A stretch of DNA of 60,630 nucleotides from Acidobacteriota bacterium (GTDB taxonomy: Bacteria > Acidobacteriota > UBA6911 > JACQSX01): positions 1-60,630 of the forward strand of contig DASXQR010000035.1 in NCBI GenBank assembly GCA_036507075.1. Direction: 5' to 3'. A program made the translations under genes and the position numbers. This document shows, piece by piece, positions 17,109-51,349 of the stretch. Under the pieces are notes generated by a model. It was given only the letters and a program-made list of their open reading frames with translations. It made no database searches and was not told the origin of the DNA. Numbering within the stretch: position 1 is the stretch's first letter; each line of letters opens with the position of its first letter.

Positions 17109-17155
17109 TGGCGGGGCTGACGAGACTCGAACTCGCGACCTCCTGCGTGACAGGC
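17109..17155 (-). repeat. att site: 3' fragment of tRNA-Asp (copy 3, one mismatch)
   Basis: TGGCGGGGCTGACGAGACTCGAACTCGCGACCTCCTGCGTGACAGGC matches 51273-51319 except C>T at 17118. Confidence 0.95.
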
Positions 17156-17272
17156 TTTTCCAACCGCACCAGTCAATCAGCATTCAATCCACAACCAATC
17201 ATTACACAAGTAGATGGGAGTTTTCACCATTCAAGCTGGTGAAGCGATTACCCGTCAACCTGATAGCAAAAA

Positions 17273-17290
17273 GGGCACAAAACGGGCACA
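17273..17290 (+). promoter_or_regulatory. Putative integrase arm-type site GGGCACAAAACGGGCACA
   Basis: Identical to 30681-30698 and 51205-51222; lies in a ~160-bp block (17156-17312) homologous to 30562-30720. Confidence 0.75.
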
Positions 17291-17410
17291 CGTAAATACC
17301 ATTTTCGAAAACCGACTGCAATCTCACAATCCAGGGCAGTCAGCGCGGCGGTTGGATGCCATCGTTAGGCATGAAATTGCATTCTGTCATCTCTTCTCGC
17401 CATTCTGTAG

Positions 17411-17797
17411 TTATGCGATCTCGATGTCGGTGTAGCGAAAATCCGAACCGACACACAGTAAAGGTTGGCGCGCCACCTTGGCGACAGCGTAGGAGAGACA
17501 ATCTCCGAAATTCAGAGCGGCCCGATGACGTCCTTTACCGAATCGACGGTAGGCCTCGAGCGCCTCACGCCAGTGCACGTCGCCGAACGCGATCGTTGCA
17601 ACCCCAAACTCCTGCAGAAACATTGAGAGCAGCCCCAGTGGGTCAGATGCCATTCGGGCAAACAGCACAATTCCCGCCTCCGCCAGAGTGGGCGCCCCGG
17701 TTGCCGTGTTATCCGAAACAATCAGCTTATCCAGCACCAGGCGAAAGCCAGGCTCCTTGAAGAAGACCGCCACTATCGCAGAACTATCCAAGATCAT
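17411..17797 (-). CDS. vapC: VapC PIN-domain toxin
   Basis: MILDSSAIVA and RFGKGRHRAALNFGDCLSYAVA...GSDF motifs. Confidence 0.92.
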   Translation of the reverse strand: MILDSSAIVAVFFKEPGFRLVLDKLIVSDNTATGAPTLAEAGIVLFARMASDPLGLLSMFLQEFGVATIAFGDVHWREALEAYRRFGKGRHRAALNFGDCLSYAVAKVARQPLLCVGSDFRYTDIEIA

Positions 17798-18066
17798 ACG
17801 CCCGCAGGCCCGTAACCCAGAATCCGCTCCTTTTCCCTCTTGCTCAGCTTTCGGCCCAGTCGTCGTCGCGGAATCTTTGGCCAGATGCTTTTTTCCATAA
17901 AACGGATCAGTTGTGGCTCGCGGTGAGCTGAGGGCAGTTGATGCAACAAGCGCTGCTTCCTTTCCTGCAGAGCCCTGTGGATTGCCTCTGTTTTGCTCTC
18001 ACCGGTCAATCTGGAGACCTCGGTAGCGAGAGCTTCCACTTTGTGATTCTTAATGTTGAGCGGCAT
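17794..18066 (-). CDS. vapB: VapB antitoxin (Rv0623-like)
   Basis: MPLNIKNHKVEALATEVSRLTGESKTEAIHRALQER...ILGYGPAGV; 4-bp overlap with vapC. Confidence 0.88.
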   Translation of the reverse strand: MPLNIKNHKVEALATEVSRLTGESKTEAIHRALQERKQRLLHQLPSAHREPQLIRFMEKSIWPKIPRRRLGRKLSKREKERILGYGPAGV

Positions 18067-18224
18067 GAACCCATTTTTCCCATTTTGGTGTAATTTGTCA
18101 ACCATGGTGTAAACAGCCAAATGCCTGCCAGCACCTGGTCACGTAAGCGGTTGGCGCGATTGAATTGTGCTTATCGTAGTGCTGTTTTCTGGTCGTTGAA
18201 GAACTGCGGCAGAAAACTGCGCAG

Positions 18225-19082
18225 TTAACGTTTGACTCTAAACTTGATCTCAAACTGTGCCGGGTATGCAACGGCGGTCTCCTCCATTCTTGCGGGCTCG
18301 AAAATCCAGTCCCGATAAACTGTGTCGACGGCGGAACGTCCAAACCAGTAGTGCGGGCATTCGAGCAGCAGGAGCGAGGACGGCTCTGGCCTTCCGTCGG
18401 GGGTTATGATTCCCGAGATCAAGACCCTTGCCTCGTAGCCTGTTTCCGCAAGGGGTTGCGGATAAGAAGGTAGTGTCTGGCGTACAAGTTTTGGCTGGCG
18501 AGTCACGAAAAGATGGGGTACGCGAGAAAGTTGGCGCAACTGGAGACATGCGCGCGGAGTGATGAGCATAAGAAAACATCGCCTGCCAGAAGTTCTTAAA
18601 ACAACTGCTGTTGTCTCTTTGCGGCCGCCCCTGATGGCAATACCACGAAACGGCGTGTCTTTGATCGTGGCGTCCAGCGTCAGCTCAAACCCGACTTCCG
18701 TCCATGCCAGGTCTTTCAGTTTGTAGGACACGCCGGTGAACTCGTTGGAATGGGCGAATCGGTGCCCACCCGCAGCAGTGTTGAGTGTGTATACGTCCAG
18801 AAAGCCGACCGGGCCCTGCAGTGGCAGGCTGGCAATGTCAGCACGCGGGTTGCCGAGCATTAGCTGCGATAGCTGCTCAGGAACAGAACAGTCGACGGCC
18901 AACGATTTTTTAGATTTGATTCGGTCGCCCGTGTCGGTGAGTTGACCTGCAACTACAAAAATGTGAATTTCATCGCGATATCCACCTGCGGATAGCGATC
19001 CTGGAGATAGCGCCAGAATAAGGACGAGCCGATATACGGCACGAGCAGTTCGTCCTCTGTGTCTGTTAGTGGTGAACAACAA
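18225..19082 (-). CDS. Secreted protein with TonB C-terminal-like domain (start uncertain)
   Basis: Signal-like VYRLVLILALSPG; C-terminal PSYPQPLAETGYEARVLISGIITPDGR...WIFEPAR resembles TonB_C. Confidence 0.6.
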   Translation of the reverse strand: MLFTTNRHRGRTARAVYRLVLILALSPGSLSAGGYRDEIHIFVVAGQLTDTGDRIKSKKSLAVDCSVPEQLSQLMLGNPRADIASLPLQGPVGFLDVYTLNTAAGGHRFAHSNEFTGVSYKLKDLAWTEVGFELTLDATIKDTPFRGIAIRGGRKETTAVVLRTSGRRCFLMLITPRACLQLRQLSRVPHLFVTRQPKLVRQTLPSYPQPLAETGYEARVLISGIITPDGRPEPSSLLLLECPHYWFGRSAVDTVYRDWIFEPARMEETAVAYPAQFEIKFRVKR

Positions 19083-19090
19083 TATGGAAG

Positions 19091-19135
19091 TGGCGGGGCC
19101 GACGAGACTCGAACTCGCGACCTCCTGCGTGACAG
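19091..19135 (-). repeat. att site: 3' fragment of tRNA-Asp (copy 2)
   Basis: Exact 45-bp match to 51273-51317, ending at the anticodon loop. Confidence 0.95.
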
Positions 19136-19252
19136 AGCGGTCCCATTGCCTGTAACAATTCATCAATTTCCCTCAAAAAGTTAGTTTTCAGTGGCTTTGG
19201 TTAATTCTTGGCTTTGGCCCGTCAACTGAGGGGTAGCGCTTTGTTTATGAAT

Positions 19253-19272
19253 ACCGGCACAGGACCGGCACA
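19253..19272 (+). promoter_or_regulatory. Variant arm-type site ACCGGCACAGGACCGGCACA
   Basis: Same 11-bp periodic GGCACA pair and same 121-bp offset from the att core as the other copies. Confidence 0.65.
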
Positions 19273-19877
19273 AACTGGTTGATGATTCCCTATCTTGTTT
19301 GGAAGCGTCACCTACTTTACGCAGGCTATAGTTACCATGTTTACGAGTTTCGTGTTGTCTCCTTGTCTTTCCTCGGTCAATTCGTGTCCCGCCCAAGCAG
19401 GAGTCATTAAATGATCGTGCCCACCAGTCTCCAAAACTCTGGCTGGCTGCTTTGGACGATTTCGAACTATCTTCTAGCCTATCGAGTTTAGAACGATTCT
19501 AGAGAAGATTAAGGGGTTGGTCGAGAGGAAGAGCGAGAAGATGCAAAAGAAGAAGGCTTCCTGATTCCCCTTAGCAAGTCCCCCAAGTCCCCAAATCCCC
19601 GAAGTTTCTCGGTGGATAAGAGACGCGATTTCCCTCGGAGCAACCTGATCAGATCGACCCTTGGATTTTCGTGGGTCCCTGCTTGAAGGATCGTCCACTC
19701 CTCCTGGGTTGGACTTTAACTGAACCACCGCCCAGACCTGTGGCGCCTTCGAGAATTACCAGTAGGCAGTCCCGATTCCTGGTCGAATTCAAATCCTGTG
19801 AATCTTCGATAAGGCCCTTGGGAGCGGGGCGGCGCGGCACATCTTGAATTGGCCCTTTTCTACGACGGGTCTGTTAC

Positions 19878-20699
19878 TTAACGTTCAAAGTCTTGCGTGA
19901 CATGGATTGAGGAGCGCAAGTCGAAGCGCGCTGCTGCCGAGTCCCATGCATATCGATACAACTTATAGGTAAACCCATTCGGCGTTCGGTCCCGATCACT
20001 TGTGGTCTCGATCGTGCCCCCCCCGTATTTCACCTCTGGGCTGTAACCCTTATAGTTGGAGAAAGGAATCTCGGTGAGGCGTCCCTGAATCCCGACTCTC
20101 CACATCTTTAACCATCCCGAAATCCCTGTTTCTCCCATCCCCCCAACTACGACATCTAAAGGGCCATCGTGATCCATGTCTTCAAGAAGGAATTGTCGGA
20201 ACACGAGGTCTCCCTCGTCAGTAACGAGACTCTCGATTTTGCCCTGCGACTCCCTGAGTATGTGTATATTAAAAATACTACCCGGTCTATGGTCGGGCGG
20301 AAGTGCTCTCGTCAAAACAAAATGCACTACCGATTTCCCATCTGGAGAACGGACGCGATTGACTGCAAAAGGCTCTTCGTCCTTTGCTAAGGCGGCAGCA
20401 ACCCCCGGCGCGATCAGACATCGAACGGAGGAACCAAAAACGCGCGTGTCCTTCTTCTCCGTATCTCCGTTTCGCTCGACGTACTGAACCACAATAATGT
20501 TTGCGTCGCGATCCACGGCAAGAAGTAAACCGAAGATGTGGTCGAGTTCCGGGTATCTCTTTTGCGCCACGAGTCGCGCACCGTTTGGCAGCAGTGAGGT
20601 GTCTTGCTGCCGCTCCGCAGTGGCCGCTCGACCTCCGCAGCCACTCCATACCAGCATGGACATTGTCCAGATCACACTCATCGTCAGGTGAGCCTTCAT
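19878..20699 (-). CDS. Putative lipoprotein (possible immunity protein)
   Basis: Lipobox-like LVWSG-C; DMDHDGPLD motif; ATGA overlap with the upstream ORF. Confidence 0.6.
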   Translation of the reverse strand: MKAHLTMSVIWTMSMLVWSGCGGRAATAERQQDTSLLPNGARLVAQKRYPELDHIFGLLLAVDRDANIIVVQYVERNGDTEKKDTRVFGSSVRCLIAPGVAAALAKDEEPFAVNRVRSPDGKSVVHFVLTRALPPDHRPGSIFNIHILRESQGKIESLVTDEGDLVFRQFLLEDMDHDGPLDVVVGGMGETGISGWLKMWRVGIQGRLTEIPFSNYKGYSPEVKYGGGTIETTSDRDRTPNGFTYKLYRYAWDSAAARFDLRSSIHVTQDFER

Positions 20700-21040
20700 T
20701 GCCGATCCTTGGCACCCATACAGGCGAAGAATTTTGCAAAGCCGTCAGAGTACAGCGCATATGCTTTCATCCTTCTGTCACGCGCTTCTTTGCCTTCCGC
20801 GGATTTGCTCCACTTTCCAAAACCTGACCGATACCAACCAGCCAGGACCGCGTTGCCCGCATTTGGCCTGCGAGACATAATATACAGATATATTCGAGCG
20901 GCGCTCATGACGTTCGCATAAGGGTTACCGGTGAATCGCTCAGCCGTAACATCGCCCCAGGCATCGCCCCATATGAGATCGGAGTTCTTCCGGGTATCAT
21001 ATTGCATCGGGCCAACGTCCCACGAGGGCGCCCTTCTCAA
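20696..21040 (-). pseudogene. 5'-truncated lysozyme/transglycosylase-like C-terminal fragment
   Basis: WDVGPMQ...NPYANVMSAARIYL...LAGWY resembles SLT motifs; no good start; abuts a divergent gene. Confidence 0.45.
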
Positions 21041-21064
21041 TGGCCAGGGCGGGGATTCATCGCG

Positions 21065-23449
21065 ATGTCCGTAAAGGTGAAGCTGTGGTCGGTTCTCCTG
21101 CTTTCAATGGTGACTCTTCTGCCGGCGTCGGTGCGTCGCGTCACCAGTGATAAGCAACGTGCAAAGGAGTACCTCGCTGCAGGCGACTACCGCTCTGCTC
21201 TGAACCTGCTTGACCTGCTGACAGCCTCTAATTCAGGGGATTCTGAAATATACGAATGGGCGGGTCTCGCCGCGATGCAACTGCAAGATTACGGCCCGGC
21301 AGCAGCGTATTTGAAAACTGCTCGCAGTCTGAAGCCGGGCGATCCCCAAATTCGTAAGCTGCTGGCTAAGACCTATCTGCTTGCCGAAGAACCGGCTCTG
21401 GCACAGTCCGAGCTCGAATTCTTGATTACGTTGTCACCGAAAGACTGGGAGGCATGGTCGATGCTGGGTCGCCATTACCAGCAGGCAAATCGATTTGACC
21501 GCGCAAAGCCCACTCTGGAGCAGGCGCTGCGTCTGAACCCAGGCGACGTTCTGGCGCTCGCATCGCTCGGATACACGTACTTTGGACTGGGCCGGAACGC
21601 CGAAGCAATCGCGGCATATCGCAAGGCGGTAGAGGTCAACCGAATCCGCCCCCGGCCGTACGCGGAGCCCCACGCTTCGTACGGAATCATCCTATTACGC
21701 CTGGATCGGCCGGACGAAGCGCGCTTGCAAATCGAAAGGGCGGCAGTTCTGGATCCGCAGAACAAATTAGTGCATGAGGCTCAGACGGCGCTGGCTATCA
21801 GGTTTCGTGTATCGGTGGATAATCCCACTGCCGGACAAGCTGGTTTGCGCGCCAGCGCAATAGTGCCGACCTTCCGAGACATCGCGCGCAATTCGGGTTT
21901 GGATTTCATTCTGCAGAATGACCCCACTGCCGAAAAACATCAGATCGAAACCATGCCCGGCGGCCTTGCCGTCCTTGACTTTGACAACGACGGACGGCTC
22001 GATGTCTACCTGACCAATGGCGCTGAAAGCCCCTCGCTGAAGAAGACAAGTCCGCGCTTTTGGAATCGCCTCTATCGCAACATTGGAAACGGGAGGTTCA
22101 GCGACGCGACCGTGCAGGCAGGGGTGCAGGGCCAAGGTTATGCCATGGGAGCTGCGGCAGCCGATTTCGACAATGACGGTTTCACCGACCTGGTGGTTGT
22201 CGGCGTCAACCGCAACACGCTTTATCGCAACAATGGAAACGGCACTTTCAGCGATGTTACCCGCGGCTCGGGTCTCGACTCAAAAGATGACCGGCAGCGA
22301 TGGGGTATCCATGCCGCCTGGATCGACTACGACAATGACGGCTGGCTCGATCTGCTGTTGGTTAACTACTGCGCGTGGAACCCATTGCAGGAACCCTATT
22401 GCGAGTCGGCGGGAGCCGGTCGTTCTTACTGCCATCCGTCAAAATATCGGCCCCTTCCCAACCAGCTCTTCCACAACAACCGCGATGGAACATTTACAGA
22501 CGTTTCCGAGAAGTCCGGCATCGGGCGCTTTCCGGGCAAGGGCATGGGCGCCGCTATTGCTGACTGGAATGGCGACGGTCTCAGTGACATTCTTGTCGCC
22601 AATGACACAGAGCCTAATTTCTTGTTTTGGAACAAAGGCGATGGGAAGTTTGAGGAGATCGCGACGCAGTCAGGCGTCGCTTTCAATCAATTTGGCGGCG
22701 TAGTTTCTTCAATGGGAGTCGATTTCCGGGATTTTGACAATGACGGTCGGCCCGATCTTTTCGTCACGGATCTTTCGAATGAAGGCTTCCTTTTGTTTCG
22801 AAACCGAAGCAAGTGGTTTGAAGATATCGGCGACAGGAGCGGCGTCGCTGTTGCAAGCCTGCCATTCAGCGGGTGGAGCAACGCAATCGCCGATTTCAAT
22901 AATGACGGCTGGAAAGATCTGGTCTCGGTCAATGGACACGCCATCGATAATATCGGATTGACACAGAGCAGAAGCTATAAACAGCGAAACACCCTGTACC
23001 TTAATAATGGCAACGGGAAGTTCACTGATGTGTCCCTCCGGGCAGGTCCGGATTTCCAGCGCGCCGCCGCACACCGGGGCGCGGCCGTTGCAGATTTCAA
23101 TAATGACGGGAAAATGGATCTCGTTGTCACCGCCCTGGGGGATCGGGTGGAGCTGTTTGAAAATACCACGCCGTCGGCAGGACACTGGCTCATCGTTCGA
23201 CTGGTGGGGAGGCGCTCAAATCGCTTGGGACTGGGAGCCGCCCTGGAAATTGTTACCCAGTCGGGCAGCAGACTATGGAACCATGCCACAACTTCAGTCG
23301 GCTACGCCTCCTCGTCAGATCCGCGCGTGCACTTCGGTCTGGGCAGCGCCACTCTGCTCCGCGAGGTAATGATCCGATGGCCCGCGGGCCGCGTCCAGAT
23401 AATAGAAAATGTCAACGCGGATCAAATCCTGACGGTCCAAGAAGAGTAG
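21065..23449 (+). CDS. TPR + CRTAC1-family (FG-GAP/VCBS repeats, ASPIC/UnbV) secreted protein
   Basis: TPR repeats, multiple DFDNDG motifs, HRGAAVADFNNDG and SSSDPRVHFGLG. Confidence 0.9.
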   Translation: MSVKVKLWSVLLLSMVTLLPASVRRVTSDKQRAKEYLAAGDYRSALNLLDLLTASNSGDSEIYEWAGLAAMQLQDYGPAAAYLKTARSLKPGDPQIRKLLAKTYLLAEEPALAQSELEFLITLSPKDWEAWSMLGRHYQQANRFDRAKPTLEQALRLNPGDVLALASLGYTYFGLGRNAEAIAAYRKAVEVNRIRPRPYAEPHASYGIILLRLDRPDEARLQIERAAVLDPQNKLVHEAQTALAIRFRVSVDNPTAGQAGLRASAIVPTFRDIARNSGLDFILQNDPTAEKHQIETMPGGLAVLDFDNDGRLDVYLTNGAESPSLKKTSPRFWNRLYRNIGNGRFSDATVQAGVQGQGYAMGAAAADFDNDGFTDLVVVGVNRNTLYRNNGNGTFSDVTRGSGLDSKDDRQRWGIHAAWIDYDNDGWLDLLLVNYCAWNPLQEPYCESAGAGRSYCHPSKYRPLPNQLFHNNRDGTFTDVSEKSGIGRFPGKGMGAAIADWNGDGLSDILVANDTEPNFLFWNKGDGKFEEIATQSGVAFNQFGGVVSSMGVDFRDFDNDGRPDLFVTDLSNEGFLLFRNRSKWFEDIGDRSGVAVASLPFSGWSNAIADFNNDGWKDLVSVNGHAIDNIGLTQSRSYKQRNTLYLNNGNGKFTDVSLRAGPDFQRAAAHRGAAVADFNNDGKMDLVVTALGDRVELFENTTPSAGHWLIVRLVGRRSNRLGLGAALEIVTQSGSRLWNHATTSVGYASSSDPRVHFGLGSATLLREVMIRWPAGRVQIIENVNADQILTVQEE

Positions 23450-23574
23450 AACGGGGGGGGTGCAAGCCCACAAAAGACGGCCCGCGGGCCGTCTCCAAAA
23501 ATGTCCAAACTCCAGGGCCGCGACATCTTGCGGCGAACTCTGGCGAAGCATGCTGCCTCTTTACAGCTCCGGTT

Positions 23575-25284
23575 TCATTTAAGCCCGGCCAGCATGTCCT
23601 GCGCCGACTGTGAATCCGGGTTGTAGCGCAGTGCTTCCATCAACTGTTCGCGGGCCTCATGCCTTTTGCCTGAACGCAGATAGGCCACTGCCGCAAAGAT
23701 ACGCCCGGTCTCCAGTCCCGGGTTGCGCGACAGCGCGTCCTTCCATAACTTCAACGCTTCCGGGTATTGCCCTTTTTTTGCCAGCATCCCTCCCAGATTG
23801 ACGGCCGCCACGGTTTGCGAAGGATCCTGCTCCAGGCAACGGCGGTAATGAGCCTCCGCTTCCTTTTCCTGCCCGCGTCTGTCGTAAATAAAACCGAGTT
23901 GCAGTAGAACTTGCGCATCCGGTGCTTCTTCTATGGCCGCCTTTCGCAGCAGATCGAAAGCGCGGTCATATAAGGCGTCCTTCTTTAGCTGAGATGCCGC
24001 TTCCGCGTAAGCCAGGCCCAATGCCCGGGTGTCGACCCGGTTTCCCCAGAAACTTTGCAACTGCAGCTTTCCGACGCTCGGCTCGGTCAGATTCGCGCGC
24101 GGACGCACCGGGATGGAGTGATCTGTGTAAACGGTATGTCCGGCATCGATCACTGGAGTCTTTGGCATGTGACAGGCAGCGCAATCATCCTGGTTAGCGG
24201 CTCGCAGGGCGCTTGATAATCTGCAATCCGTTTCACGATGGCAAGTCAAACATTTGGCGCGAAAATATTCCGCTCGTGACTTTTCTGCGGGCACGAAATG
24301 TGGATCATGGCAGGTCCCGCACCAGAGACGGTCACCGCTTTCCTTTTTACATCGGCTTTGCCACAGCTTCTCAAAGTGGCTGGTTGCTTTCATTTCCGAC
24401 GCGGTGGTCGACCAGACAAAGGATGAAACATGATCCGACAGCAAGTCTCCCGGACGAAAAGTAGAGAGGGATCGTCCCGCTCTAAAGATCCGGGCTTCAC
24501 CCGTGAGATGACACTGAGCGCAGACGCTGTCGCGCCGCCCCGGTTCCAGCCTGGCGGGGTTGACGATGCCAGTGTCGCCACTGGTTTGGCCTGCAGTAAT
24601 GCGGGAGACATGCGGCTGCGCGGGTCCGTGGCAGCGCTCGCAGCTCACGCCGTTTTCAAGAAAAGGAATGTTCGCAAAACCGTTTTGCGTGCCGCGAACC
24701 GGTTGCAACTGGCTGGCGTGACATTCCAGACACTCGGGCCCGACGGCACGAATCAGGTTCATGCGAGTGTGCGATTCGTAACCTGGAGACGCTCCCCACT
24801 GCCGGCGCCGCGAGTAATACGATACGGGTGCCTGGAACAAAAAGCCGCCGCTGGAGTACAGGAAGCTGCGGCCCACGGAACCCGAGCCGACAAAAAAATC
24901 GAAGCGGCGTTCTCCGGCAATCGCAGGTCCCCGGTTGAGAGCGTCTCGCGTGAAGTGGAACCAGTAACTCTCTCCTTTGTTCAATATCCGGTACTGCACC
25001 CCCGACGGAGCATGGAAGAAAGCGGCGGGCGCGAGATCGACCGTGAAGGTGGATCTGTCCACAACGCCGCTGCTGTTTGCCATCGCCGTTGTCGCATAGT
25101 TTTTGTAAATGGACGCGTGACAGCCCGCGCATGCGCGACTGCCTGTATGTTCGGCGGCGCGGTCCTGAGCAGGCGCAAGCAGGATCGCCAGGAAGAGGAG
25201 CAACGCGGACAAAATCATGATGCGCGGGAAGAAAATCACAGAGCCTCGCCGGATGCCAACGGGCGTTGCCGGCACGCGAAGCAC
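23575..25284 (-). CDS. Multiheme cytochrome c (c554-like) with C-terminal TPRs
   Basis: Seven CxxCH motifs (CAGCH, CLECH, CERCH, CAQCH, CGTCH, CLTCH, CAACH) plus TPRs; start may be ATG 25218. Confidence 0.88.
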   Translation of the reverse strand: MLRVPATPVGIRRGSVIFFPRIMILSALLLFLAILLAPAQDRAAEHTGSRACAGCHASIYKNYATTAMANSSGVVDRSTFTVDLAPAAFFHAPSGVQYRILNKGESYWFHFTRDALNRGPAIAGERRFDFFVGSGSVGRSFLYSSGGFLFQAPVSYYSRRRQWGASPGYESHTRMNLIRAVGPECLECHASQLQPVRGTQNGFANIPFLENGVSCERCHGPAQPHVSRITAGQTSGDTGIVNPARLEPGRRDSVCAQCHLTGEARIFRAGRSLSTFRPGDLLSDHVSSFVWSTTASEMKATSHFEKLWQSRCKKESGDRLWCGTCHDPHFVPAEKSRAEYFRAKCLTCHRETDCRLSSALRAANQDDCAACHMPKTPVIDAGHTVYTDHSIPVRPRANLTEPSVGKLQLQSFWGNRVDTRALGLAYAEAASQLKKDALYDRAFDLLRKAAIEEAPDAQVLLQLGFIYDRRGQEKEAEAHYRRCLEQDPSQTVAAVNLGGMLAKKGQYPEALKLWKDALSRNPGLETGRIFAAVAYLRSGKRHEAREQLMEALRYNPDSQSAQDMLAGLK

Positions 25285-25559
25285 AGAGCCACGTCCCGCA
25301 AGGGCGTGCCGGAAACAATCTCAGTCGGCTTGCCTTTCACCAGAATGTGCCGCCGCGAAAAACCGGTCACCTCAACATTTAGCGTCTCCGGCCAGGGGCA
25401 CGTCAATGTCTACGCAAGTGCGAAATACGGCCTGCGGCAGACGGCATACTTTTTTCGGGAACGTGAACGTAATCATTGACGTCAATCGTTGAGGTGCACG
25501 TGACCGTCCCCGGCATTTGTTTGGCGTGCCGGGCTCAATCCTGTGGTGAACAACTCCTG

Positions 25560-28500
25560 TCAGAAATCCATTCTCAACCCGAGTTGCCCGGTTCGACTTC
25601 CGCTCACACTGGTGATTTGCCCGAATCTCGGGTCAAGCACATTGGTCACGATGCCGCCGAAGAAATGACGGTTGAACACGTTAAGGAACTCGGCGCGAAA
25701 TTCAACCTTCATTCCTTCCTTAACCCTGAAGTTCTTATGCAGCCCGACGTCTTCTGCGATGCTCCAGGGATTCCGAATATTCGACGTAAAACCGGCGTTC
25801 CCCAGCGTAAAGGGTTTGTGGTCGGTAAAGACTCCGGGTCTCACATACAAATGTGGAGTGTAACCGGCGCGCGACACCGCCGAGGCGTCAAAGCTCTTGC
25901 GGTCAAACCCGGCCAGAAGCGATTGGCCGCCGGGATTGTTCAAGTCTGGACGGTTTGCCCGGCCGTTCCAACCCGGAATGGCGCTGCCGGTAAACCTGAG
26001 CGGAGTTCCGCTGGCATAATTCCCCAGGTAACTGAGTGTCCATCCGCCCAGCGCAAAGTCGGCCGCGCTATGCATTCCGCTGAAGAACTTTCGGTTCGCG
26101 CCAAAAGGAAGTTCGTACGTCACCCCGATTTTATAGACATGCGTCTGGTCGCTGTCCGAAAGGCTTTTTTCCAGTTTCAAATTGTAGTAGTCCAGGGGCC
26201 GGTTTGGATTGTCGTTTCTCAGGCCGCTCTCCATGTTGTGGAGCGTCTTTGAAAAATTGTAATTTGCCAGCAAGCTCAGGCCGCCGCTGTAGCGGCGATT
26301 CACCGCCAGTTGCAGCGAATGGTAATTGGAATGGCCCAAAGGAGACTGGAAGGTCGTTAAACCGATGCCGTTTCTGGCCAGATGAGGGAACGGGACCAGG
26401 GCCTGCCACAATCGCCCGCCCGCAAAGGCGGGATAAGGGAGGCCGGGGAGCCCGAACTTTTGGGCGTCCGCATCGGTTTGCAGCACGCTGTCCAGGCTGG
26501 CGCCGAATTTCAAGTGTTTCGGATCGAGCTGGTTTTTATTCGCCAGGTCGCCGACCCACAATCCTGAAGACTTCGCCCCGACATAACCGATATCCACAAT
26601 CAGATCTCTCATCAGCTCCCGCTGGATGTTGAAATTCCACTGTTGCGTATAAGGCGAGCGCCCGGCGCTCGGATCCCAGTGTGTCACACCGCCGAACTGC
26701 CAGGCTGCAGGCGTAAATGCGGCAGGCACAAAATTCCCCGGATATCCGTTGTCCCAGTTGAACAGGGAAGTGAAATTAAACGGGTTGCTCATGTTGTTGG
26801 TGCCCGCAAAGCCGCGCTGAAACGGCGCGCCCGAAAATCCGTTGAACACTGAAGCGTTGTAGAAAATTCCGTATGCAGCGCGAATTGAGGTTTTCCCGTC
26901 GGGCGAAAACGCAAATCCGAGTCTCGGCCCGAAGTCGTTTTTGTCGCTGTCAACGAACCGCCTCTTGCCGCTTCTGCCCGGACCTTTACCGGCAAATACC
27001 ACCGCGCCCTTCATACCAGTCAAAGGGTCGGTCAGATTCAGGTCGAAGTTTGATGTGCGATCCGTAACTTCCACCATCGGCGGCTGGAATTCGTAGCGCA
27101 GCCCGAGGTTCAAAGTTAATTTTGAGTTGACCTTGAAATCATCCTGCACGTAGCCGGCGTAATAGTAAGTGCGGCCGCCGGAGACCAGCGGCACCCCCAC
27201 GCTGGCGTTGTTCACCTCTCCCAGCAAAAAGGAGGCGAAGGCGTGTCCGACAAAATTCACGCCCGGAATGCCGGTCTGCTGTGACGTGAAGTTGAAGGTG
27301 CCCGAGAGATTCCCCTGAGGCCGGTTATTCTGCTGGTTTCCGCGCAGGTCCAGGCCGAGCTTCAGATTATGCCTGCCGCGCGTCCAACTGATCGAGTCGG
27401 CCGCGCCCCAGGAATTGTAGGTCTGGAAATCGTCCTGCGGATCGCCGATGTTGTCAAAGCTGATCCCCGCCGGGCCCGCGCCCCAGTTGATGCGCGGGCA
27501 GGGGCCGTTCTGCTTCACTCCCTTGATTCCCAGTGTCGCCGCACAGCCTTCGTCCACATGCGCGGAGCGATTTGGATTTGGCATGCGGTTCCACGACACG
27601 ATGAAATGATTCAGCAGCGTCGGCGACAGGATGTAATCGTGCGCGGTCCTGAACAGCCAGGAATTGACCACTTGACGGCGGGCGGTAGACAGCGGTCCCC
27701 CAATCGGATCGGTTGGATCCCACAACCCGCCCTGATCGAGCAAGAGTCGCGGGCGCGTATTGCGCGCCAGGCTGCCGTTTAATTTTTGTTTTTCTGAAAT
27801 GTCGTGATCGATTTTAAAGGACCACTGGTTTTGATCGAATTCAGGTGTATTGGCCAGAGGAAAAAGGCTGTTGGCGGTGAGCGAATTGTTTACCGGGGCA
27901 TAGTGTTTTTTGGCGATCGCGCCGATGTTTCTCGAAACCTGGCTGATCCGGCCGGCGGGGATGATGTTGTTTGGAAAAGGATCTGCCACGAAGCTCGATC
28001 CGACCTGCTTCAGTGTGAGTGGATCGTAAATCGCCCCGCGCAGGATTGGCCTTCCCAGCGCGTCGGTTCCTACCACGGTTGTGGTCAGCAGCCGGCTCAG
28101 GTTTCCTTCATACATTTCCAATTGCGGTACGGTGCGATTGGGAGTACCAAAGGCCAGCTGGCGCTCTTGATATTTCTCGGCCGATATAAAGAAGAATGTC
28201 TTGTCCCTTCCATTGTAAATCTTGGGCAGGACTACCGGGCCGCCGAAACTCCCGCCGTAATTGAAGCGCCTCTCTCTGGCGCGCGGCCGGCCGGCGGCGT
28301 TATTGGCGAACGAGTTTGCGTTGAGCGCCTCGTTGCGAAGCTGCCCAAAAAGGCTGCCATGAAGTTTGTTCTGGCCGGAGCGCATCACAAAGTTGAACAC
28401 GCCGCCTCCGGTTCGCCCGTATTCAGAGGATAAGCCGCTGGTCTGGATCTTGAATTCTTCCAGCGCTTCCATCGAGACGCTGCTTTCTCCAAAATGTCCC

Positions 28501-29084: not shown

Positions 29085-29658
29085 AACCCACACTCCTGAC
29101 GTGAAATTTGCGGACCGGAAACTGCTGCATTCTAGCCCAATCCAAACTTCTTCGCTACAGAGAGGGAAACGGTGCGAGGGAGACTGGCTGGAAAATGGCA
29201 TCTCCGGCGCGAACCCAGGCGCGGCAATCGTGTCGGCTGACCCAGACGTCTCCGATTCCCCAATGCAGATGGGTGCTGGAGATGCTGGATACATCTCACC
29301 GAAGAACTGATCTCCTGGTGGATTGAGACGTGCGGCTCTTTGAGTTATTTGCCAGCGACTCGAATTTAGTGAAGAGGATTTTGAAATTTTTGCAAAGATA
29401 AATGGCCTGTTTAACATCGATTAGTGCTGATCCGATCTGCGATTGAGGAAATTGGCTTGCTCAGTAACGTGAGCGCGTTTGCGTAATCGTCAGGAACAGA
29501 GATCTCGACGGCCAGCGCTGGACCGTTGTGAAAACGCAATGCGGGATCATGCTGCTTCGTCTGCGGGTTGATCCAAAAACGGTGTAAACCGGCATTCATC
29601 CGACGTGCGAAAGCCGGGATTCGCTACTCAACTCACCCGCGGCGGACGAGGTACCGAG

Positions 29659-31971: not shown

Positions 31972-31978
31972 CCGAACA

Positions 31979-39188: not shown

Positions 39189-39450
39189 TGCAGGTCTCTC
39201 CCTCCTGGTCATCGGATTCGGACTCGTCTGCTGGATTGGCTTTCACAAGGCGCAACCCGTCAAAGTCGCCAGAGCCTTTTCTTTCCTCCTGGAATTCTTC
39301 GTACAGATCCCAGATTTGACGATTGATCATTTCGAGAATCGTGTGTACTGCTTCCACTTCCTTCGTGTCTTGCACTTCCGTCAGGATCATCAGCGAGTAG
39401 ACACCGCGAACAGCCAGCAACAAACGATCAGATTGCGATTTGGTAATCAT
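39181..39450 (-). CDS. Small helical hypothetical protein
   Basis: ATG 39450 with GGAGAG RBS; overlaps the resolvase start. Confidence 0.5.
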   Translation of the reverse strand: MITKSQSDRLLLAVRGVYSLMILTEVQDTKEVEAVHTILEMINRQIWDLYEEFQEERKGSGDFDGLRLVKANPADESESDDQEGETCND

Positions 39451-40376: not shown

Positions 40377-41237
40377 TTAAGTTTCTTCCTCGAACTTGCG
40401 ATTAAGGATGAAATCCGCGGCCTTCTGAGCCTGCGCTCCTGCGATCACAACCAGCTTGCTATCCACTCGAAGCCTTGAGAGCCAGCCATTGATGTAGCTG
40501 GCGCTGTTGTCCAGCACAGCGTTTTCAATGCCCGTATGCCCGCAAAGGAAAGAGGCCGTCATTTCGGCTACCAGTTCCTCGCGCGAGTAGTTTGTGCTTC
40601 CAAAAGGGCAAAGGTCCGTAAGGGTCTGCCTGTTTAACCGCGATTCATGCCCGGTTGAATGCGCCAGTTCATGGAAGGCCGTCGCATAAAAACCTTCGTC
40701 TGATTTGAACAGGACACGCTCAGGCATGTTGACGGTATCGGTAGATGGCCGGTAGTATGCAAGCGCTTCCAAGCTGCTCATACGCGGCGGATTTGGCATT
40801 CCTGAGATAACCTGCTCGCATTCCTGAATGGGGGTAAATTCCCGCGTCACTGTCTCAGTCGCTGGCGCTTCGATTCCCTCGCATTGTGCGACATTGAAAA
40901 CCGTGTAATAGCGGCAGAGCGGGATAGTTTTTTCTTCCTGGGTGTCCTTGTCTTCCGCTTTCAGCCACTTCCAGAAGACTACCGGCGAACCCTTTTCACC
41001 CTTGCGAACGTTCCCGCCCAAGTCTTGAGCTTGTTTGTAAGTCAGCCAGTAGGGTGATGCGTATTGCTGGCAACCAAGCAGGAAGACGTTAATCCCGCGA
41101 TACTCTTTCTTGCTGATCAGGTTTTTAGGCATGGAGCCCGCCGCATTCCATGGACGCTGCCAGGGGATTGTTCCCTGTTCCAGTTTTTCGATAATCCGTT
41201 TCGTGATGACGTCATAGACTGTGTTATTCTGAGACAT
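40377..41237 (-). CDS. ardC: ArdC anti-restriction protein (DUF1738 ssDNA-binding + zincin-like domain)
   Basis: IPWQRPW, YRGIN, WLTYKQA..GGNVRKGEKG, YTVFN..Q, HELAHSTGH and YSREELVAE. Confidence 0.92.
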   Translation of the reverse strand: MSQNNTVYDVITKRIIEKLEQGTIPWQRPWNAAGSMPKNLISKKEYRGINVFLLGCQQYASPYWLTYKQAQDLGGNVRKGEKGSPVVFWKWLKAEDKDTQEEKTIPLCRYYTVFNVAQCEGIEAPATETVTREFTPIQECEQVISGMPNPPRMSSLEALAYYRPSTDTVNMPERVLFKSDEGFYATAFHELAHSTGHESRLNRQTLTDLCPFGSTNYSREELVAEMTASFLCGHTGIENAVLDNSASYINGWLSRLRVDSKLVVIAGAQAQKAADFILNRKFEEET

Positions 41238-43229: not shown

Positions 43230-44360
43230 TCACTGGTGCCCTACTTGCTCTATTGCCTTTTGCAAGATTCCAGTTTCCAGCGCTTGGCGCGTTCCGCATG
43301 TGATTTCCTTCGGCAATTCTGAATCTCCTCCTGACTTTGTGACGTAGATTAGAATGAGAGGAGATTTGCGCCTATTTACTTCAGCCTCGATGACACTCTT
43401 AAGATATGGTTCGAGGTACCATCGGCAGCCGACGATTACCAAAATTTTAGCCAGGCGAATAGCGTTCAGAAACCTAGCAAACAGGCTGACGTAGGGTTCA
43501 AAGCGGGGAAGCTTGCCGCCTCTAGCAAAAAGCATGGTAGGTGGATTTAAACCTCTCAGTATGCCGTAACTCTGCAGACTAGGATTAATTCCCCGAAACC
43601 CCATTGAGGATTCGTGTGGGGGAAACTCCTCGATTTGGAATTCGGGCGGTGTGTGCAGCCAACTGACTGATCCATGTAGTTTATACAGCATTAGCCGATA
43701 ATCGTGGTTGTCGAATTCGTCTGGCTTCCACCGTCCATGTGAGAAGCCAGTTGTTAATGGGATTCCACCCTTGTAGCAAGCGAGTTCCACTGCCACGTCA
43801 TAATTCAAGGTGAAGACCTGGACGCGCCCTTCGAAGGAAGCGAGTCGCGCGAGGTAAGAAACGTCGTTATGGTTGAGATCGATTTCAAGCCACTGACGCA
43901 GTTCCGACTGGACCCGATTATAAAGCAGATCATATGTGTGGCCTTCTGAGATGGCCGCGTGACTGAAAAAGGCGCGATCCGAGTCCGTAAAAGGTCGTGA
44001 CCATTCCTTCGGTATGTGCTCTAGACCACCATGCTTTGAAGGGAAGCCAGAGAACTCAGCTAATTCTGGGAACCAAGTCTGTACAAATGGGTAAAGTCCT
44101 GATTTGAATCTGAAACGCAAATCGTCGAGCGCAGCGATCACATCCTCGAAATTGTCACCGCTTATGAAAGGGTTATCTTTCTCGACGCTCTTGAGTTTTT
44201 TTCGAATGAGATTAAATAAACGTTGTTCTGGACTCCCGCTTGTGAATGAGCGTTCCAAACGCCTGAAGAAATCCGCGGTAGCCGGGAGACCTGCGTCAAT
44301 AGATGCCCCGGCACCAAGCAAGAAAATCACCCCCGATCTGGTCGGTTCTGGCTGTAACAT
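43230..44360 (-). CDS. SIR2-like (SIR2_2) NAD-binding protein
   Basis: FLLGAGAS, FTLNYD, LYKLHGS and LVIVGC motifs. Confidence 0.88.
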   Translation of the reverse strand: MLQPEPTRSGVIFLLGAGASIDAGLPATADFFRRLERSFTSGSPEQRLFNLIRKKLKSVEKDNPFISGDNFEDVIAALDDLRFRFKSGLYPFVQTWFPELAEFSGFPSKHGGLEHIPKEWSRPFTDSDRAFFSHAAISEGHTYDLLYNRVQSELRQWLEIDLNHNDVSYLARLASFEGRVQVFTLNYDVAVELACYKGGIPLTTGFSHGRWKPDEFDNHDYRLMLYKLHGSVSWLHTPPEFQIEEFPPHESSMGFRGINPSLQSYGILRGLNPPTMLFARGGKLPRFEPYVSLFARFLNAIRLAKILVIVGCRWYLEPYLKSVIEAEVNRRKSPLILIYVTKSGGDSELPKEITCGTRQALETGILQKAIEQVGHQ

Positions 44361-47163: not shown

Positions 47164-47328
47164 CATCTAGTCGCCACCGGCACTCACCTACTCTAGGGAC
47201 AAACTTTACAAAAAACCTAGCGGATTTCTGCAAACTTTGTCCCTAACGTCGCCGTAGTGCGCTTGGGCACAATGGGGGATCATTGTGAGTTACGACAGCA
47301 CATACCAGTGAAAGACAAAGGGAAGGAA

Positions 47329-47544
47329 ATGAAAACCCAGATACTCAATACGTCACATCTCCTAACTGCCGACGAAGCTGCCCAGTTGACTGGCCTTGCT
47401 CCCACGACAATACGACGCTTGGCGTGGCAGCGTCGGGTTCGCAGTTACAAGATCCTCGGCGCGTTGCGCTTCAGAGTCGAAGACCTCGAAGCTTTGGCCA
47501 TTGAAAGGCCGACAAGAGAAAGGCGCGAAGAAGCCTGCGTGTGA
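47329..47544 (+). CDS. Excisionase/AlpA-like HTH_17 protein
   Basis: LLTADEAAQLTGLAPTTIRRL...YKILGALRFRVEDL. Confidence 0.85.
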   Translation: MKTQILNTSHLLTADEAAQLTGLAPTTIRRLAWQRRVRSYKILGALRFRVEDLEALAIERPTRERREEACV

Positions 47545-48146: not shown

Positions 48147-49877
48147 TTGGACGCGAGAAACGCACTCCAGCTCTTCAAATCTCAGAACGGCCAGCCGAGT
48201 ATTAAAGAGCTGTCCGACGAGGCTTGTGGATTGCTCACTGAAGCATCGTCGTTGGATACCGTAACGCAAGCCCTCAGGTCGCTATCGCCGTCAGTTCAAA
48301 ACCTGGACCCACTGACGCGAGCAGCTCTAGAGGCAGAGATTGCCCGCCGGCTCAAAGGGTTAAATGTCCCTAACTCGACTAAACTTGCTTCGCGCGCTGT
48401 CGTCCCTCAAAAACCAGTGCAACCATGCAACCGCGACCAAAATTATGCGAAACATCAAGTACTTAGTGGTTGCACAGAGGATAACAACCGTCCTGCAACG
48501 GAGTCGGATCACGCCACGGACTTGCGCATATGCGAAGCCTTAGCCAAGGGAACGTCGATTCTCGATCGGTTTATCGAAGACCTCAGCCATCAAGTGGCTG
48601 GAGAAGAGAAAGCGGCGAAACTCCTGTTTCTTATATTGATGAGTCGGTTCTTGTCGCGGCCAGTTTCAGCGGCGGTGAAGGGACCATCCAGCGCTGGCAA
48701 ATCGTATTTGCTGGAGTCCGTTCTGGCGTTCTTTCCACGCTCAGCTTATTTCACGATATCGGCGATGTCACCAAAATGGCTCGCATACACTGACGAGCCG
48801 TTTCAAAACCGTTTCATAGTTTTGTTTGAACTGTCTGGAATGGAAGATGAAGATTTAGTCCAATATTTAATCCGGTCACTTTTAAGTGAAGGAAAGATCG
48901 TATATGGCTTCGTTGATAAGGGTCAGAATGGATTGCAGTCTGTGATCAATGAGCGGGAAGGCCCAACTGGGTTTTTGACCACCACGACAGCCATCAGCGT
49001 CCATCCTGAAAATGAAACCCGCTTGCTCTCAATCCCGGTCACAGACACAGCGGCCCAGACCCGCGCTGTGTTGATCAAGATCGCTGAAGCTGACGGATTC
49101 AGACCGGACTACACTCAATGGCACGCTTTGCAGCGCTGGCTTGAAAAGAAAAACCACAATGTGGTGGTTCCCTACGCTCGGGAGCTGGCGGAAAGAATCC
49201 CGTCTGTTGCAACGCGGCTTCGGCGTGATTTCACGGCGATCCTCGGCTTAATCAAAAGTAATGCGATCCTCCATCAAGCGAGTAGGCCGATCGATTCCGA
49301 AGGTCGTATCGTGGCGTCGATCTCCGACTACGAAGCTGTAAAAGAGTTAGTGCTCGACTTAGTGTCGAGCGGCATTGATGCGACCGTGTCCTGTGTTCTG
49401 CGGGAAACTGTAGAGGCCCTGAAGGCGATCCAAAATCCTCATGGAGTCACTGTGGCGGCACTATCAACCAAGCTCGGATTGGACAAATCAACAGTCTGGC
49501 GGCGCGTGCGATCGGGAATAGCGAAGGATTACATAAAAAATTTGGAGGACAAACGGGGTCGCCCGGCCCGCCTCGTTTTAGGAGATGACCCACTGCCGGA
49601 CGATATCGGAATTTTACCGCCTGGTTGCGATCTTGTTGCGAGTGGTTGCACGACCCATGCAACCACTAATCTAAATGAAAATAAAGACGTTAGTTTCTCT
49701 GGTTGCACGGTTGCAGCGGAAACTGGAGGGATTAACAACCCTCCTTGGGTCGAGCCCGAGGTTGGCCCTGGCGGATACCCGGTTTCCTGGGATATCGGAG
49801 GTGGTAACGGTAAGCCTTTCGAGTCTGATCCCGGGTATGTCGCCTCCCTAATTCAGGACCAGGAGTTGGCCGAATGA
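48147..49877 (+). CDS. P-loop (MCM/AAA+-like) replication protein with C-terminal winged helix
   Basis: VKGPSSAGKS Walker A, RSLLSEGKI, EGPTGFLTTTT, ENETR and RLRRDF; C-terminal LSTKLGLDKSTVWRRV HTH. Confidence 0.75.
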   Translation: MDARNALQLFKSQNGQPSIKELSDEACGLLTEASSLDTVTQALRSLSPSVQNLDPLTRAALEAEIARRLKGLNVPNSTKLASRAVVPQKPVQPCNRDQNYAKHQVLSGCTEDNNRPATESDHATDLRICEALAKGTSILDRFIEDLSHQVAGEEKAAKLLFLILMSRFLSRPVSAAVKGPSSAGKSYLLESVLAFFPRSAYFTISAMSPKWLAYTDEPFQNRFIVLFELSGMEDEDLVQYLIRSLLSEGKIVYGFVDKGQNGLQSVINEREGPTGFLTTTTAISVHPENETRLLSIPVTDTAAQTRAVLIKIAEADGFRPDYTQWHALQRWLEKKNHNVVVPYARELAERIPSVATRLRRDFTAILGLIKSNAILHQASRPIDSEGRIVASISDYEAVKELVLDLVSSGIDATVSCVLRETVEALKAIQNPHGVTVAALSTKLGLDKSTVWRRVRSGIAKDYIKNLEDKRGRPARLVLGDDPLPDDIGILPPGCDLVASGCTTHATTNLNENKDVSFSGCTVAAETGGINNPPWVEPEVGPGGYPVSWDIGGGNGKPFESDPGYVASLIQDQELAE

Positions 49878-50128
49878 GCCTTCGTCTCTGTTCGGTTGGA
49901 GAAGTAATGAGTGAGATTCATCCTGCTGTGATGTACGAGAAGGAAGCAGCCAAGTACGTGCGACTCGGGATTCACCAATTTCTGCGCCTCGTCAATGCCG
50001 AGAAGATCCCGTGCCGGAACCATGAGGGCGGTATGCGCAGAATCTACCTCAAAGCGGATCTGGATAATTACCTGCAGGCTCTCCCGAGATGTAAGATTGT
50101 CTCCTCGAAAAGGAGGCTTAGCTTATGA
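49874..50128 (+). CDS. Excisionase-like HTH protein
   Basis: EKEAAKYVRLG...KIP...RIYLKADLDNYL; ATGA-coupled to the integrase. Confidence 0.75.
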   Translation: MSLRLCSVGEVMSEIHPAVMYEKEAAKYVRLGIHQFLRLVNAEKIPCRNHEGGMRRIYLKADLDNYLQALPRCKIVSSKRRLSL

Positions 50129-51225
50129 GTGTAAGAAGGCATCGCGGAAAAACCATCATCGACACGCGCTGGCCGGACGGGACGCGTTCCAGGACAGTGG
50201 CTCTGGATGAAGAAGCGGCAGGCAACCTGGATCTGCGAATTCGTGCGGCGAAGCTCGATGGAAGCTGGCGGGAACTGAGGGACCGGCTTTCGCCAGCTCT
50301 CGACAGATATCTGATCTTCAAGAAGTACGCCAAATTCTACATGCGTGAATACGTGGCTTCTCACAACCGATCGCGCAAGTACAAGCGCCAGCGAATTCGC
50401 CAACTCCTGAAGGTTTTCAGACACCTGAGACTTGATGCGATCGGGCCGCATCACGTCAGCCAGTTCATACGCCGGCGAAAGAAGCAGGGCGTGTCAAACT
50501 CGACCATCAATAAAGACCTCCACGTCCTGCACCACATGTTTGTGTGGGCGGCAAAACAGCGAATCATCAAGCGGAATGTCTTCGAGTGGTTTGATGAAAT
50601 TGACAAGCTCGAAGAAATCGAAGTGAAACGTCCCCGGGCAACCGATGAAGTCCTGGACGCGATCTTTGCCAAGTTGGACAAGCGCGTCTATCCGCTGTTT
50701 ACGTTCATCAGGGAAACGGGGTGCAGGAAGCAAGAGGCATTTGGGCTCAGACACTCGCAGGTTGATTTCGGCCGGCGGGAGGTTACCTTCAGCGGCAACA
50801 CAAAATCCGGCAAAGCCAGACCCGTTCCTTTGACTGAAGACGCTCTGACGGCGATCGAGGCAATGCCTAAAGCGCCGGACTGCCCTTACGTCTTCTATCA
50901 TCCTGAAAGCCTCACCCGTTGGCACGACTGCAGGAAGCCGTGGAACTGCGCAAAGAAGGCGGCAGACGAGGAAGCAATCGAGAACGGAAAGCAGGCCGAG
51001 CATTCCTGGGTGATCGTCAAGGACATGCGGACCGCCTACGGGATCAAGTTGGCCGAAGCGGGCACACCGATGCATGCCATTCAAAAAGTTTTGGGCCATG
51101 CCTCGGTGACAACTACGGAGCGTTACTACGCCAAATACGCTCCCGAATCGGCAAGTGAAGAAGTACGGCGGCGCCTCAATCTGATCAAGGGCGGTAAAGA
51201 CCTGGGGCACAAAACGGGCACATAG
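50125..51225 (+). CDS. Tyrosine integrase
   Basis: ETGCRKQE (R), TKSGK (K), KDMR and LGHASVTTTERYY (H, Y); ends 47 bp from the tRNA 3' end. Confidence 0.93.
   Translation: MSVRRHRGKTIIDTRWPDGTRSRTVALDEEAAGNLDLRIRAAKLDGSWRELRDRLSPALDRYLIFKKYAKFYMREYVASHNRSRKYKRQRIRQLLKVFRHLRLDAIGPHHVSQFIRRRKKQGVSNSTINKDLHVLHHMFVWAAKQRIIKRNVFEWFDEIDKLEEIEVKRPRATDEVLDAIFAKLDKRVYPLFTFIRETGCRKQEAFGLRHSQVDFGRREVTFSGNTKSGKARPVPLTEDALTAIEAMPKAPDCPYVFYHPESLTRWHDCRKPWNCAKKAADEEAIENGKQAEHSWVIVKDMRTAYGIKLAEAGTPMHAIQKVLGHASVTTTERYYAKYAPESASEEVRRRLNLIKGGKDLGHKTGT
51205..51222 (+). promoter_or_regulatory. Putative integrase arm-type site within the last codons of the integrase gene
   Basis: GGGCACAAAACGGGCACA immediately before the TAG stop. 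Confidence 0.75.
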
Positions 51226-51272
51226 GTTCAGAGGGTTAGCATGCTGATTGGCTGTATGTGGTTGGAAACATG

Positions 51273-51349
51273 TGGCGGGGCCGACGAGACTCGAACTCGC
51301 GACCTCCTGCGTGACAGGCAGGCGTTCTAGCCAACTGAACTACGACCCC
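51273..51349 (-). tRNA. tRNA-Asp (GTC)
   Basis: GGGGTCGTAGTTCAGTTGGCTAGAACGCCTGCCTGTCACGCAGGAGGTCGCGAGTTCGAGTCTCGTCGGCCCCGCCA: cloverleaf, GTC anticodon, encoded CCA. Confidence 0.97.

Follow-up and report, generated by a model that had tools for sequence, protein, structure and literature searches.

A phage-satellite-like element in the tRNA-Asp gene of an Acidobacteriota bacterium, with probable right-end scars and captured flanking DNA behind it

The stretch of DNA analysed here (the window, 60,630 nucleotides) is one whole contig (C35) of the 6,116,317-base assembly GCA_036507075.1 of an Acidobacteriota bacterium. The assembly is 95.7% complete, and the public runs in which the window sequence occurs are soil metagenomes. 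The window carries the only tRNA-Asp gene found in the assembly, and fragments of its 3' half recur at three distal attachment (att) sites, called 17109, 19091 and 30517 after their first positions (Table 1). These bound a resident element with an integrase, resembling the phage-inducible chromosomal islands (PICIs), and two outer segments without one, segment 2 and, farthest from the gene, segment 3. We consider it probable that the outer segments are right-end scars of related elements together with captured flanking DNA, stacked behind one live PICI-like element. Here attL (B-O-P') denotes the tRNA-side site, and attR (P-O-B') denotes the distal ones.

Each distal core is a 45-nt copy of the tRNA-Asp 3' end that stops at the 5' edge of the anticodon loop CTGTCAC; at 17109 the match runs 2 nt further, and this core has one substitution, G67A at position 17118. 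Pairs of putative arm sites, GGCACA-N5-GGCACA, start at 17274, 19256, 30682 and 51206, the first three of them at +121 from the core end, i.e. with 120 nt between. These four pairs, all at att sites, are the only ones in the whole genome on both strands, where 0.72 would be expected from the hexamer frequency. A preliminary description, made from the letters of the window only, had given the three cores, the longer match at 17109, the common +121 spacing and an 18-mer overlapping the last integrase codons, and all of these were confirmed. The sites at 17109 and 30517 are 190/209 identical (17104-17312 against 30512-30720, 91%; spacer 105/120), and the homology stops at 17312. Judging from this alignment their equal spacing is homology, and therefore only 19091 is an independent case of the +121 spacing. 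The two spacers differ in 7 of the first 12 core-proximal bases and match in 100 of the remaining 108, and the arms of 17109 are identical to those of the resident over 31 nt. The 19091 spacer had been said to lack obvious similarity to the others, which holds: it is identical to the 30517 spacer at 44/120 positions and to the 17109 spacer at 42/120, and of 500 shuffles 44 and 121, respectively, scored as high. Its arm pair, ACC-GGCACA-GGACC-GGCACA (type B), differs from the type-A pair of the other two sites in the linker and in the base preceding each hexamer.

The resident element (30517-51273, 20,756 bp) is, by its genes and ends, best read as one live PICI-like element in tRNA-Asp. A profile search in all six frames found a single integrase in the window, as had been claimed, and no integrase remnant. 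The integrase has PF02899 and PF00589 above cut-off, and its catalytic set is complete except for K299 where a histidine is expected, so that HxxR reads KxxR; the motif is KDMR, KDLR or KDFR in the resident integrase and in 4 of 11 aligned homologues. In the AlphaFold2 model the N-terminus forms three strands (residues 2-6, 9-15 and 21-26) and a helix (29-45), with pLDDT confidence scores of 76-88 over residues 11-50. The best Foldseek matches of the model are the integrases of Tn1549 and lambda, the latter over the full length, with at most 21% identity to solved structures among the full-length matches. The predicted fold thus has the N-terminal arm-binding domain of a lambda-type integrase. 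Joining the arm pairs at -111 and +121 gives a predicted attP of 250 bp with a 7-bp overlap and arms on both sides, as is expected for this type. The earlier proposal of a lambda-type integrase with arm-bearing att sites and crossover in the anticodon loop is therefore supported by the arm and core anatomy and the predicted fold. In several homologues the arm pair is likewise translated as C-terminal residues of the integrase.

The genes int and terS, a candidate xis and a candidate replication module are all present in the resident element. Both xis and the gene of the candidate replication NTPase are oriented like int, and the search for a primase domain in the NTPase itself was negative. 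There are two HTH_17 genes and one HTH_3 gene, and none matches AlpA. No capsid, portal or large terminase gene was found among the 26 open reading frames (ORFs) of the element searched with PHROGs or among the ORFs scanned in Pfam, several ORFs being without any match. The composition of the element is atypical, above all 92 windows compared, and it lacks the host repeats. Two overlapping ORFs at 31979-35369, probably parts of a single gene interrupted by a frameshift near 34400, resemble virion proteins of Uroviricota (ESM Atlas 0.90-0.93; one LPD38 cluster 0.89; PLxRFG/tail-700 below cut-off). A TerS-bearing satellite with an ejection-type protein of its own would be unusual, and an assembly error or a decayed prophage is also possible.

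Table 1. Features of the window and cores of other att stacks in the same genome
Feature	Position	Strand	Remarks
tRNA-Asp(GTC)	51273-51349	-	target gene, tRNA-side att site (attL, B-O-P')
P'-type arm pair	51205-51222	+	11-bp period; runs over the final codons of int; first hexamer at -111 from loop end
Distal site 1, attR of resident element	30517-30698		core 30517-30561, 120-nt spacer, type-A arm pair 30681-30698
Distal site 2	19091-19272		core 19091-19135, unrelated 120-nt spacer, type-B arm pair 19253-19272
Distal site 3	17109-17312		core 17109-17153, match to 17155, with G67A; type-A spacer, arm pair 17273-17290
Tyrosine integrase, 366 aa	50125-51225	+	R201, K227, K299-x-x-R302, H325, Y334/Y335; predicted N-terminal three-strand and helix domain
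Excisionase-like HTH_17 protein, 84 aa, candidate Xis	49874-50128	+	adjoins int
P-loop NTPase with winged helix, 576 aa, candidate replication protein	48147-49877	+	like PF27228 domain found fused to primases
Second HTH_17 / excisionase-family regulator	47257-47544	+	
SIR2-like protein, candidate defence cargo	43230-44360	-	best PADLOC model Aga_SIR2
ArdC-type anti-restriction protein	40377-41237	-	
Small serine resolvase/invertase	38586-39212	-	
Terminase small subunit (TerS)	36529-36984	+	
Single-strand DNA binding protein (SSB)	35522-35782	+	
Two overlapping ORFs (820 and 345 aa)	31979-35369	+	like tailed-phage virion proteins
Segment 2	19136-30516		11.4 kb, without integrase; host-like cluster and short stub 19136-21040
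Genes of segment 2			TonB-dependent receptor 25560-29417; TPR/multihaem protein 23575-25284; FG-GAP/ASPIC protein 21002-23449; 201-aa ORF 29825-30430
Multi-copy host intergenic repeat in segment 2	25264-25354		up to 64 overlapping genome matches
Intact TonB_C-domain gene	18225-19082	-	signal-peptide-like start; about 8 nt after tRNA fragment CCA (19091); start codon inferred
vapB (Rv0623-like) and vapC (PIN) toxin-antitoxin pair	17411-18120	-	
Frameshifted TonB-family remnant, 178 bp	16931-17108	-	same gene start, intact beside distal site 2
Other stack cores (G000)	C98:872-919, 18354-18398; C146:62256-62290, 79060-79094; C167:16734-16790; C146:67574-67631		

The preliminary description took the equal spacing as a sign that one Int/Xis may serve all three distal sites. 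Near-identical spacing is found at other tRNAs with other integrases, and equal spacing is therefore no proof of this. In the same genome a tRNA-Arg site on contig C169 has GGCACA arms at +122 and a tRNA-Met site on C98 has GGCAAA arms at +123, both with an 11-bp period, and a paralogous integrase, 45% identical to that of the resident, adjoins tRNA-Arg on C88. The 19091 spacer is weakly like the C169 and C98 spacers (5 and 6 of 300 shuffles), which is a lead only. In a sister subfamily, 16 motif loci included six attR-type sites, and every one of the six has an offset of +112 or +113; they sit at four tRNAs (tRNA-Leu, Arg-tct, Arg-tcg and Cys), and the arm motif adjoins integrases that are 36-52% identical to one another, with one pair at 95%. 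The P'-side offset is variable, from -106 to -148 (14 of 25 motif loci with a tRNA on that side), and nine loci with a CAGGA-type motif held no attR-type site. The spacing data were taken from the motif searches and not from stretches beside homologous integrases, of which 19, beside 10 integrases, held one attR (at tRNA-Phe in G371, with repeats near +122 to +133 by eye).

A search of other genomes for tRNA-Asp followed at 121 bp by a GGCACA pair had been suggested as a check. Scans of the collections, with offsets of 101-131 allowed, gave 21 similar loci with offsets of 102-131, and only one of them is at +121. The unpublished genome G015 contributes to the tallies alone, and none of our claims depends on it. 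The offset is 124-125 in eight of the nine metagenome loci and 130 in the last, and in the 12 genome loci it is 113 (four), 102, 118, 120 (two), 121, 123, 125 and 131. The arms have a 12-bp period in 18 of the 21; the integrases, at those of the 21 loci with a match, are 22-33% identical. The core-to-arm spacing thus appears to be tight within an integrase subfamily and loose between subfamilies. By its spacing the 19091 site would stem from the same subfamily as the resident, which does not imply that the resident enzyme serves it. Neither the integrase nor the core-plus-arm pattern, the two arms taken singly or the core with its trailer had a match in a viral contig collection, where no relative of the resident element was found either. 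The type-A spacers also have TCAATC-like repeats with an 11-bp period (17173-17190 and 30581-30598), which are candidate Xis sites, and the spacers of the sister subfamily have TTAGGAAA repeats, likewise with an 11-bp period.

CTTCC follows directly after all three distal cores and is absent after the resident end. No left-end arm pair was found within 200 nt to the left of any distal core (the best candidates have 5-6 mismatches of 14), whereas ordinary internal junctions in other stacks keep left-end arms and an integrase (L130, L137, L144 and C98:919). A single GGCACG 53 nt left of the cores at 17109 and 19091 was rejected as an arm, as it is 3 nt off the P' register, in coding sequence and unpartnered. 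The left flanks of these two cores are homologous over 178 bp, about 81-86% alike, and hold the same TonB-family gene start, intact beside 19091 and a frameshifted remnant beside 17109. The composition of segment 2 is host-typical (9th percentile of 143 windows), and its proteins have further matches in the genome, 70 for the receptor and 19 for the ASPIC protein. Arms and flanks form a checkerboard, with A and flank 1, B and flank 2, and A' and a homologue of flank 2, and the switch lies inside the core, as site-specific recombination would give. The duplicated TonB-family start, the host-like segment 2 and the lack of left-end arms are the reasons why segments 2 and 3 are, on their sequence, best read as host-type flanking DNA with the right-end stub of an element. 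At 19878-21040 a 114-aa ORF truncated at its 5' end is followed by a lipoprotein-like ORF of 273 aa, both without a family match; by eye they look like an orphan toxin tip and its immunity protein in the stub of the type-B element.

In the history that we propose, Int and the adjacent Xis-like protein would act on the tRNA-side site and 30517, with crossover in the 7-nt anticodon loop, and to judge from the anatomy the product would be a circle of 20,756 bp with one arm pair on each side of its attP. The sites at 19091 and 17109 would be right ends (P arm, core and displaced tRNA half) left by earlier elements of the same subfamily, type A by a close relative of the resident and type B by a more distant one. 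The +121 spacing itself is a plain pattern, and it may be kept by the geometry needs of the recombination complex of the subfamily. The integrase-less segments seem to be more than decayed islands: in each, a tRNA trailer and genes of host type come first and an element stub last. They are probably chromosomal flank from related hosts, brought in together with the end of an element. They could have come as aberrantly excised circles with attR only, integrated by Int in trans, to which the dgal and bio phages of lambda are an analogy, or as a piece of transferred DNA that was taken up into the previous occupant by recombination; both routes seem to fit, and the present data do not separate them. 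The resident Int/Xis may also co-excise the whole stack through 17109. A more far-reaching version, which we regard as rather unlikely, makes the segments specialised-transducing units with attR only, integrated in trans and each bringing its own tRNA 3' half and downstream genes, with a distal site that later members, including the present satellite, could reuse to carry the whole 34-kb stack, as the core-to-arm geometry is set by the subfamily. If this were true, the tRNA site would act as a ratchet with which a phage satellite captures chromosomal genes across species.

Such stacks commonly arise when complete islands integrate in tandem (PMC5704250, PMC3146451). Here, three islands would have arrived in turn, and the outer two would have lost their left ends and integrases, leaving inert sites. 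In agreement with this, the same genome has multi-core stacks at tRNA-Met, tRNA-Val and tRNA-Leu, and an actinomycete metagenome-assembled genome (L078) has one at tRNA-Asp. Deletion alone, however, does not place homologous TonB-family starts behind two different cores, and it leaves unexplained both the host-like segment 2 and why none of the three cores has kept a left-end arm or an integrase trace. We therefore find plain accretion and decay unlikely. That the order of the segments is an artefact of the 45-bp and 209-bp repeats is very improbable, even if the contig was assembled from a metagenome and the order across the cores is not independently bridged by the unitigs. Ordinary reads are longer than the longest exact type-A repeat (41 bp) and than the cores (45 bp), and the sides of the junctions were recovered from public runs. 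Four runs (X1-X4) were checked over positions 12001-32000 of the window, all in the form of unitigs, which end inside every core; the listing gave 24 of the 405 loose ends and 32 of the 928 pieces. Each junction side shown is present in X1 at a similar depth of 9-13, and X1 may be the source sample. In X2 the left junctions of 17109 and 19091 are present, with 6 letters different in 3,776. Runs X3 and X4 (depth about 2-5) cover parts of segment 2 and nothing at 30677-32000; as no contig in them joins across, they were not used as evidence.

Some results weigh against captured flanks behind a live element. None of the relatives examined shows the native flank of tRNA-Asp: the corresponding regions of G001-G003 share only a PIN toxin gene with the window, there is no tRNA nearby in any of the 11 loci of TonB-like homologues, and the TonB-like protein had no full-length match in four genomes of the same family. 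The term host-type flank therefore rests on gene type and composition. At tRNA-Met of the same genome, homologous flanks (C7 against C98:919) are the left ends of related elements, one of them without an integrase. The assignment of the C169 site to the C88 integrase runs across a contig gap, and divergent integrases share one arm motif, so that cross-recognition could be wider than we assume. No junction of a circle or an empty site was seen, in unitigs that end inside the cores, over a stretch without the tRNA side, and that could therefore not have shown one; the 13 joints and three bridged joints listed avoid the att sites. Among the loose ends listed, those at 17155 that are tRNA-like differ from the tRNA of the window genome.

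In a model that follows the preliminary description, all three distal sites would be maintained substrates of one Int/Xis, and circles of 20,756, 32,182 or 34,164 bp (via 30517, 19091 and 17109; the arithmetic is right) would be packaged, with the outer segments as selectable cargo. We hold this to be quite unlikely as a whole, although one part of it stands. The 7-nt overlap and the +121 offset are the same at all three sites, an offset that is rare at the tRNA-Asp loci elsewhere, distant integrases share arm motifs, and a composite island with very different att sites has been reported to excise whole (PMC5704250). At the outermost site the overlap and the arms are identical to those of the resident and most of the spacer is conserved, and it is therefore possibly still usable; co-excision of 34,164 bp through 17109 is plausible to us on this sequence evidence, if a little short of an even expectation. 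At 19091 the flanks of the arms are different and the spacer, the expected place of sites for Xis and host factors, is unrelated, and therefore co-excision through this site appears quite doubtful. Even between 17109 and 30517 the core-proximal bases differ, and the depth in X1 is similar along the stretch. G67A, which is also present in X1 and X2, would after excision leave a C6-A67 mismatch beside the U5-G68 wobble in the only tRNA-Asp found. It suggests disuse of, or relaxed selection on, the 17109 core; the circle, whose tRNA half comes from attL, could form in spite of it.

What survives of the selectable cargo, co-excision through 17109, would be a case of cis-mobilisation as already described (PMC5704250, PMC3146451), and accretion and cis-mobilisation as a class of mechanism are already known. 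The closest parallel is given by the cis-mobilisable elements (CIMEs) and tandem accretion of the integrative and conjugative elements (ICEs) ICESt1 and ICESt3 of Streptococcus thermophilus (PMC5704250, reviewing Pavlovic 2004 and Bellanger 2011). As there, a single att site carries integrase-less segments behind an active element, and the preliminary description suggests the same mechanism, excision of the segments together with that element through the distal site. Segments 2 and 3 have no genes for integration or transfer (six frames; Pfam-scanned ORFs). CIMEs keep both attL and attR, whereas segments 2 and 3 keep the right-end arm only; they could at most function like CIMEs and are none in the strict sense. 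The active element here is also phage-satellite-like, unlike an ICE, with no conjugation gene among the ORFs scanned. Accretion and cis-mobilisation are likewise described for SXT/R391 tandems (PMC5812530). The tandem ssrA islands of Dehalococcoides are bounded by fragments of the target gene, and 15 of 31 lack an integration module and are proposed to move in cis (PMC3146451). They have a serine integrase, 20-bp repeats and a tmRNA target, in contrast to the tyrosine integrase and tRNA-Asp here, and the part of that account consulted describes no arm-site geometry.

For the tycheposon islands of Prochlorococcus it has been hypothesized that flanking DNA from other hosts accumulates (bioRxiv 10.1101/2020.12.28.424599). 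The likeness to our locus lies in the live element next to the tRNA, the partial tRNAs outward and the PICI-like set of integrase, excisionase, replication gene and TerS. In that model the flank is left after precise excision, whereas here the captured pieces would still end in an arm-bearing element stub. A flank origin of this type is indicated by the host-like composition and the duplicated TonB-family start, and no empty site was found among the relatives compared. Lateral transduction by PICIs is a known carrier of chromosomal fragments (PMC12829572), and homologous transfer of tandems with their flanks is known as well (PMC13651849). The resident element is like PICIs in its int, xis, replication-type NTPase, terS and accessory genes and in the lack of the virion genes searched for (PMC6092414). 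It is unlike canonical PICIs in its 20.8 kb, in the direction of xis and the replication gene and in its virion-protein-like genes. Its predicted recombination site resembles those of the heterobivalent systems of lambda, mv4 and Tn916/Tn1549, with an attP of about 250 bp, a 7-bp overlap, paired 11-bp direct-repeat arms at both ends and an adjacent candidate Xis. The attP of mv4, for instance, has two pairs of 11-bp arm sites as direct repeats and a 7-bp overlap (bioRxiv 10.1101/2023.11.06.565760). Unlike the characterised heterobivalent integrases, the resident one belongs to an uncharacterised subfamily with KxxR for HxxR, and its arms are putative. Sites centred on the anticodon are common, with 2083 of 3919 islands in Islander (PMC4383910). 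We found no literature that joins tandem tRNA islands, composite excision and arm binding, and claim no wider absence.

If co-excision through 17109 is real, about 13 kb of host-type uptake genes (TonB-dependent receptor, TPR and ASPIC proteins, TonB-family gene) would travel with the satellite from one soil Acidobacteriota bacterium to another. With the near-fixed core-to-arm distance that each integrase subfamily has across different tRNAs, the subfamily of orphan att scars can be told. The gene start found twice, behind two of the cores, would be a sequence footprint of the capture of flanking DNA, which the tycheposon preprint proposed from genome statistics (bioRxiv 10.1101/2020.12.28.424599). 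In our view these two observations are the ones worth keeping.

Other stacks show further combinations. In L078 four distal tRNA-Asp cores lie within 11 kb (8391-19648), with a different arm motif at each or none, and with offsets of 123, 131 and 109 and one core without a pair. An internal tRNA-Asp junction in L045/L144 (G021:C140) joins the right arm of an unrelated family with a 12-bp period to an integrase of the resident's family (46-52% over the C-terminal half). The multi-core stacks at tRNA-Met, tRNA-Val and tRNA-Leu of the genome studied here (G000) are listed in Table 1.

Outside the outermost core lies a further block of 5 kb (12046-16952), which cuts off the TonB-family remnant, has a lower GC content and is without host repeats, and the variable region thus probably extends to about 12,000. 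The block holds a second vapBC pair (12088-12739), a 305-aa ORF, a DUF3142-like ORF and a 776-aa ORF (14622-16952) whose protein was not found in five relatives. At window position 16235 the assembly has T and all four runs have C; the T may be an error of the consensus or a variant private to the assembly. Host repeats of the multi-copy kind, tandem and palindromic, with up to 214 overlapping matches in the genome, are present at 1886-2045, 10040-10312, 51848-52170 and 55460-55527.

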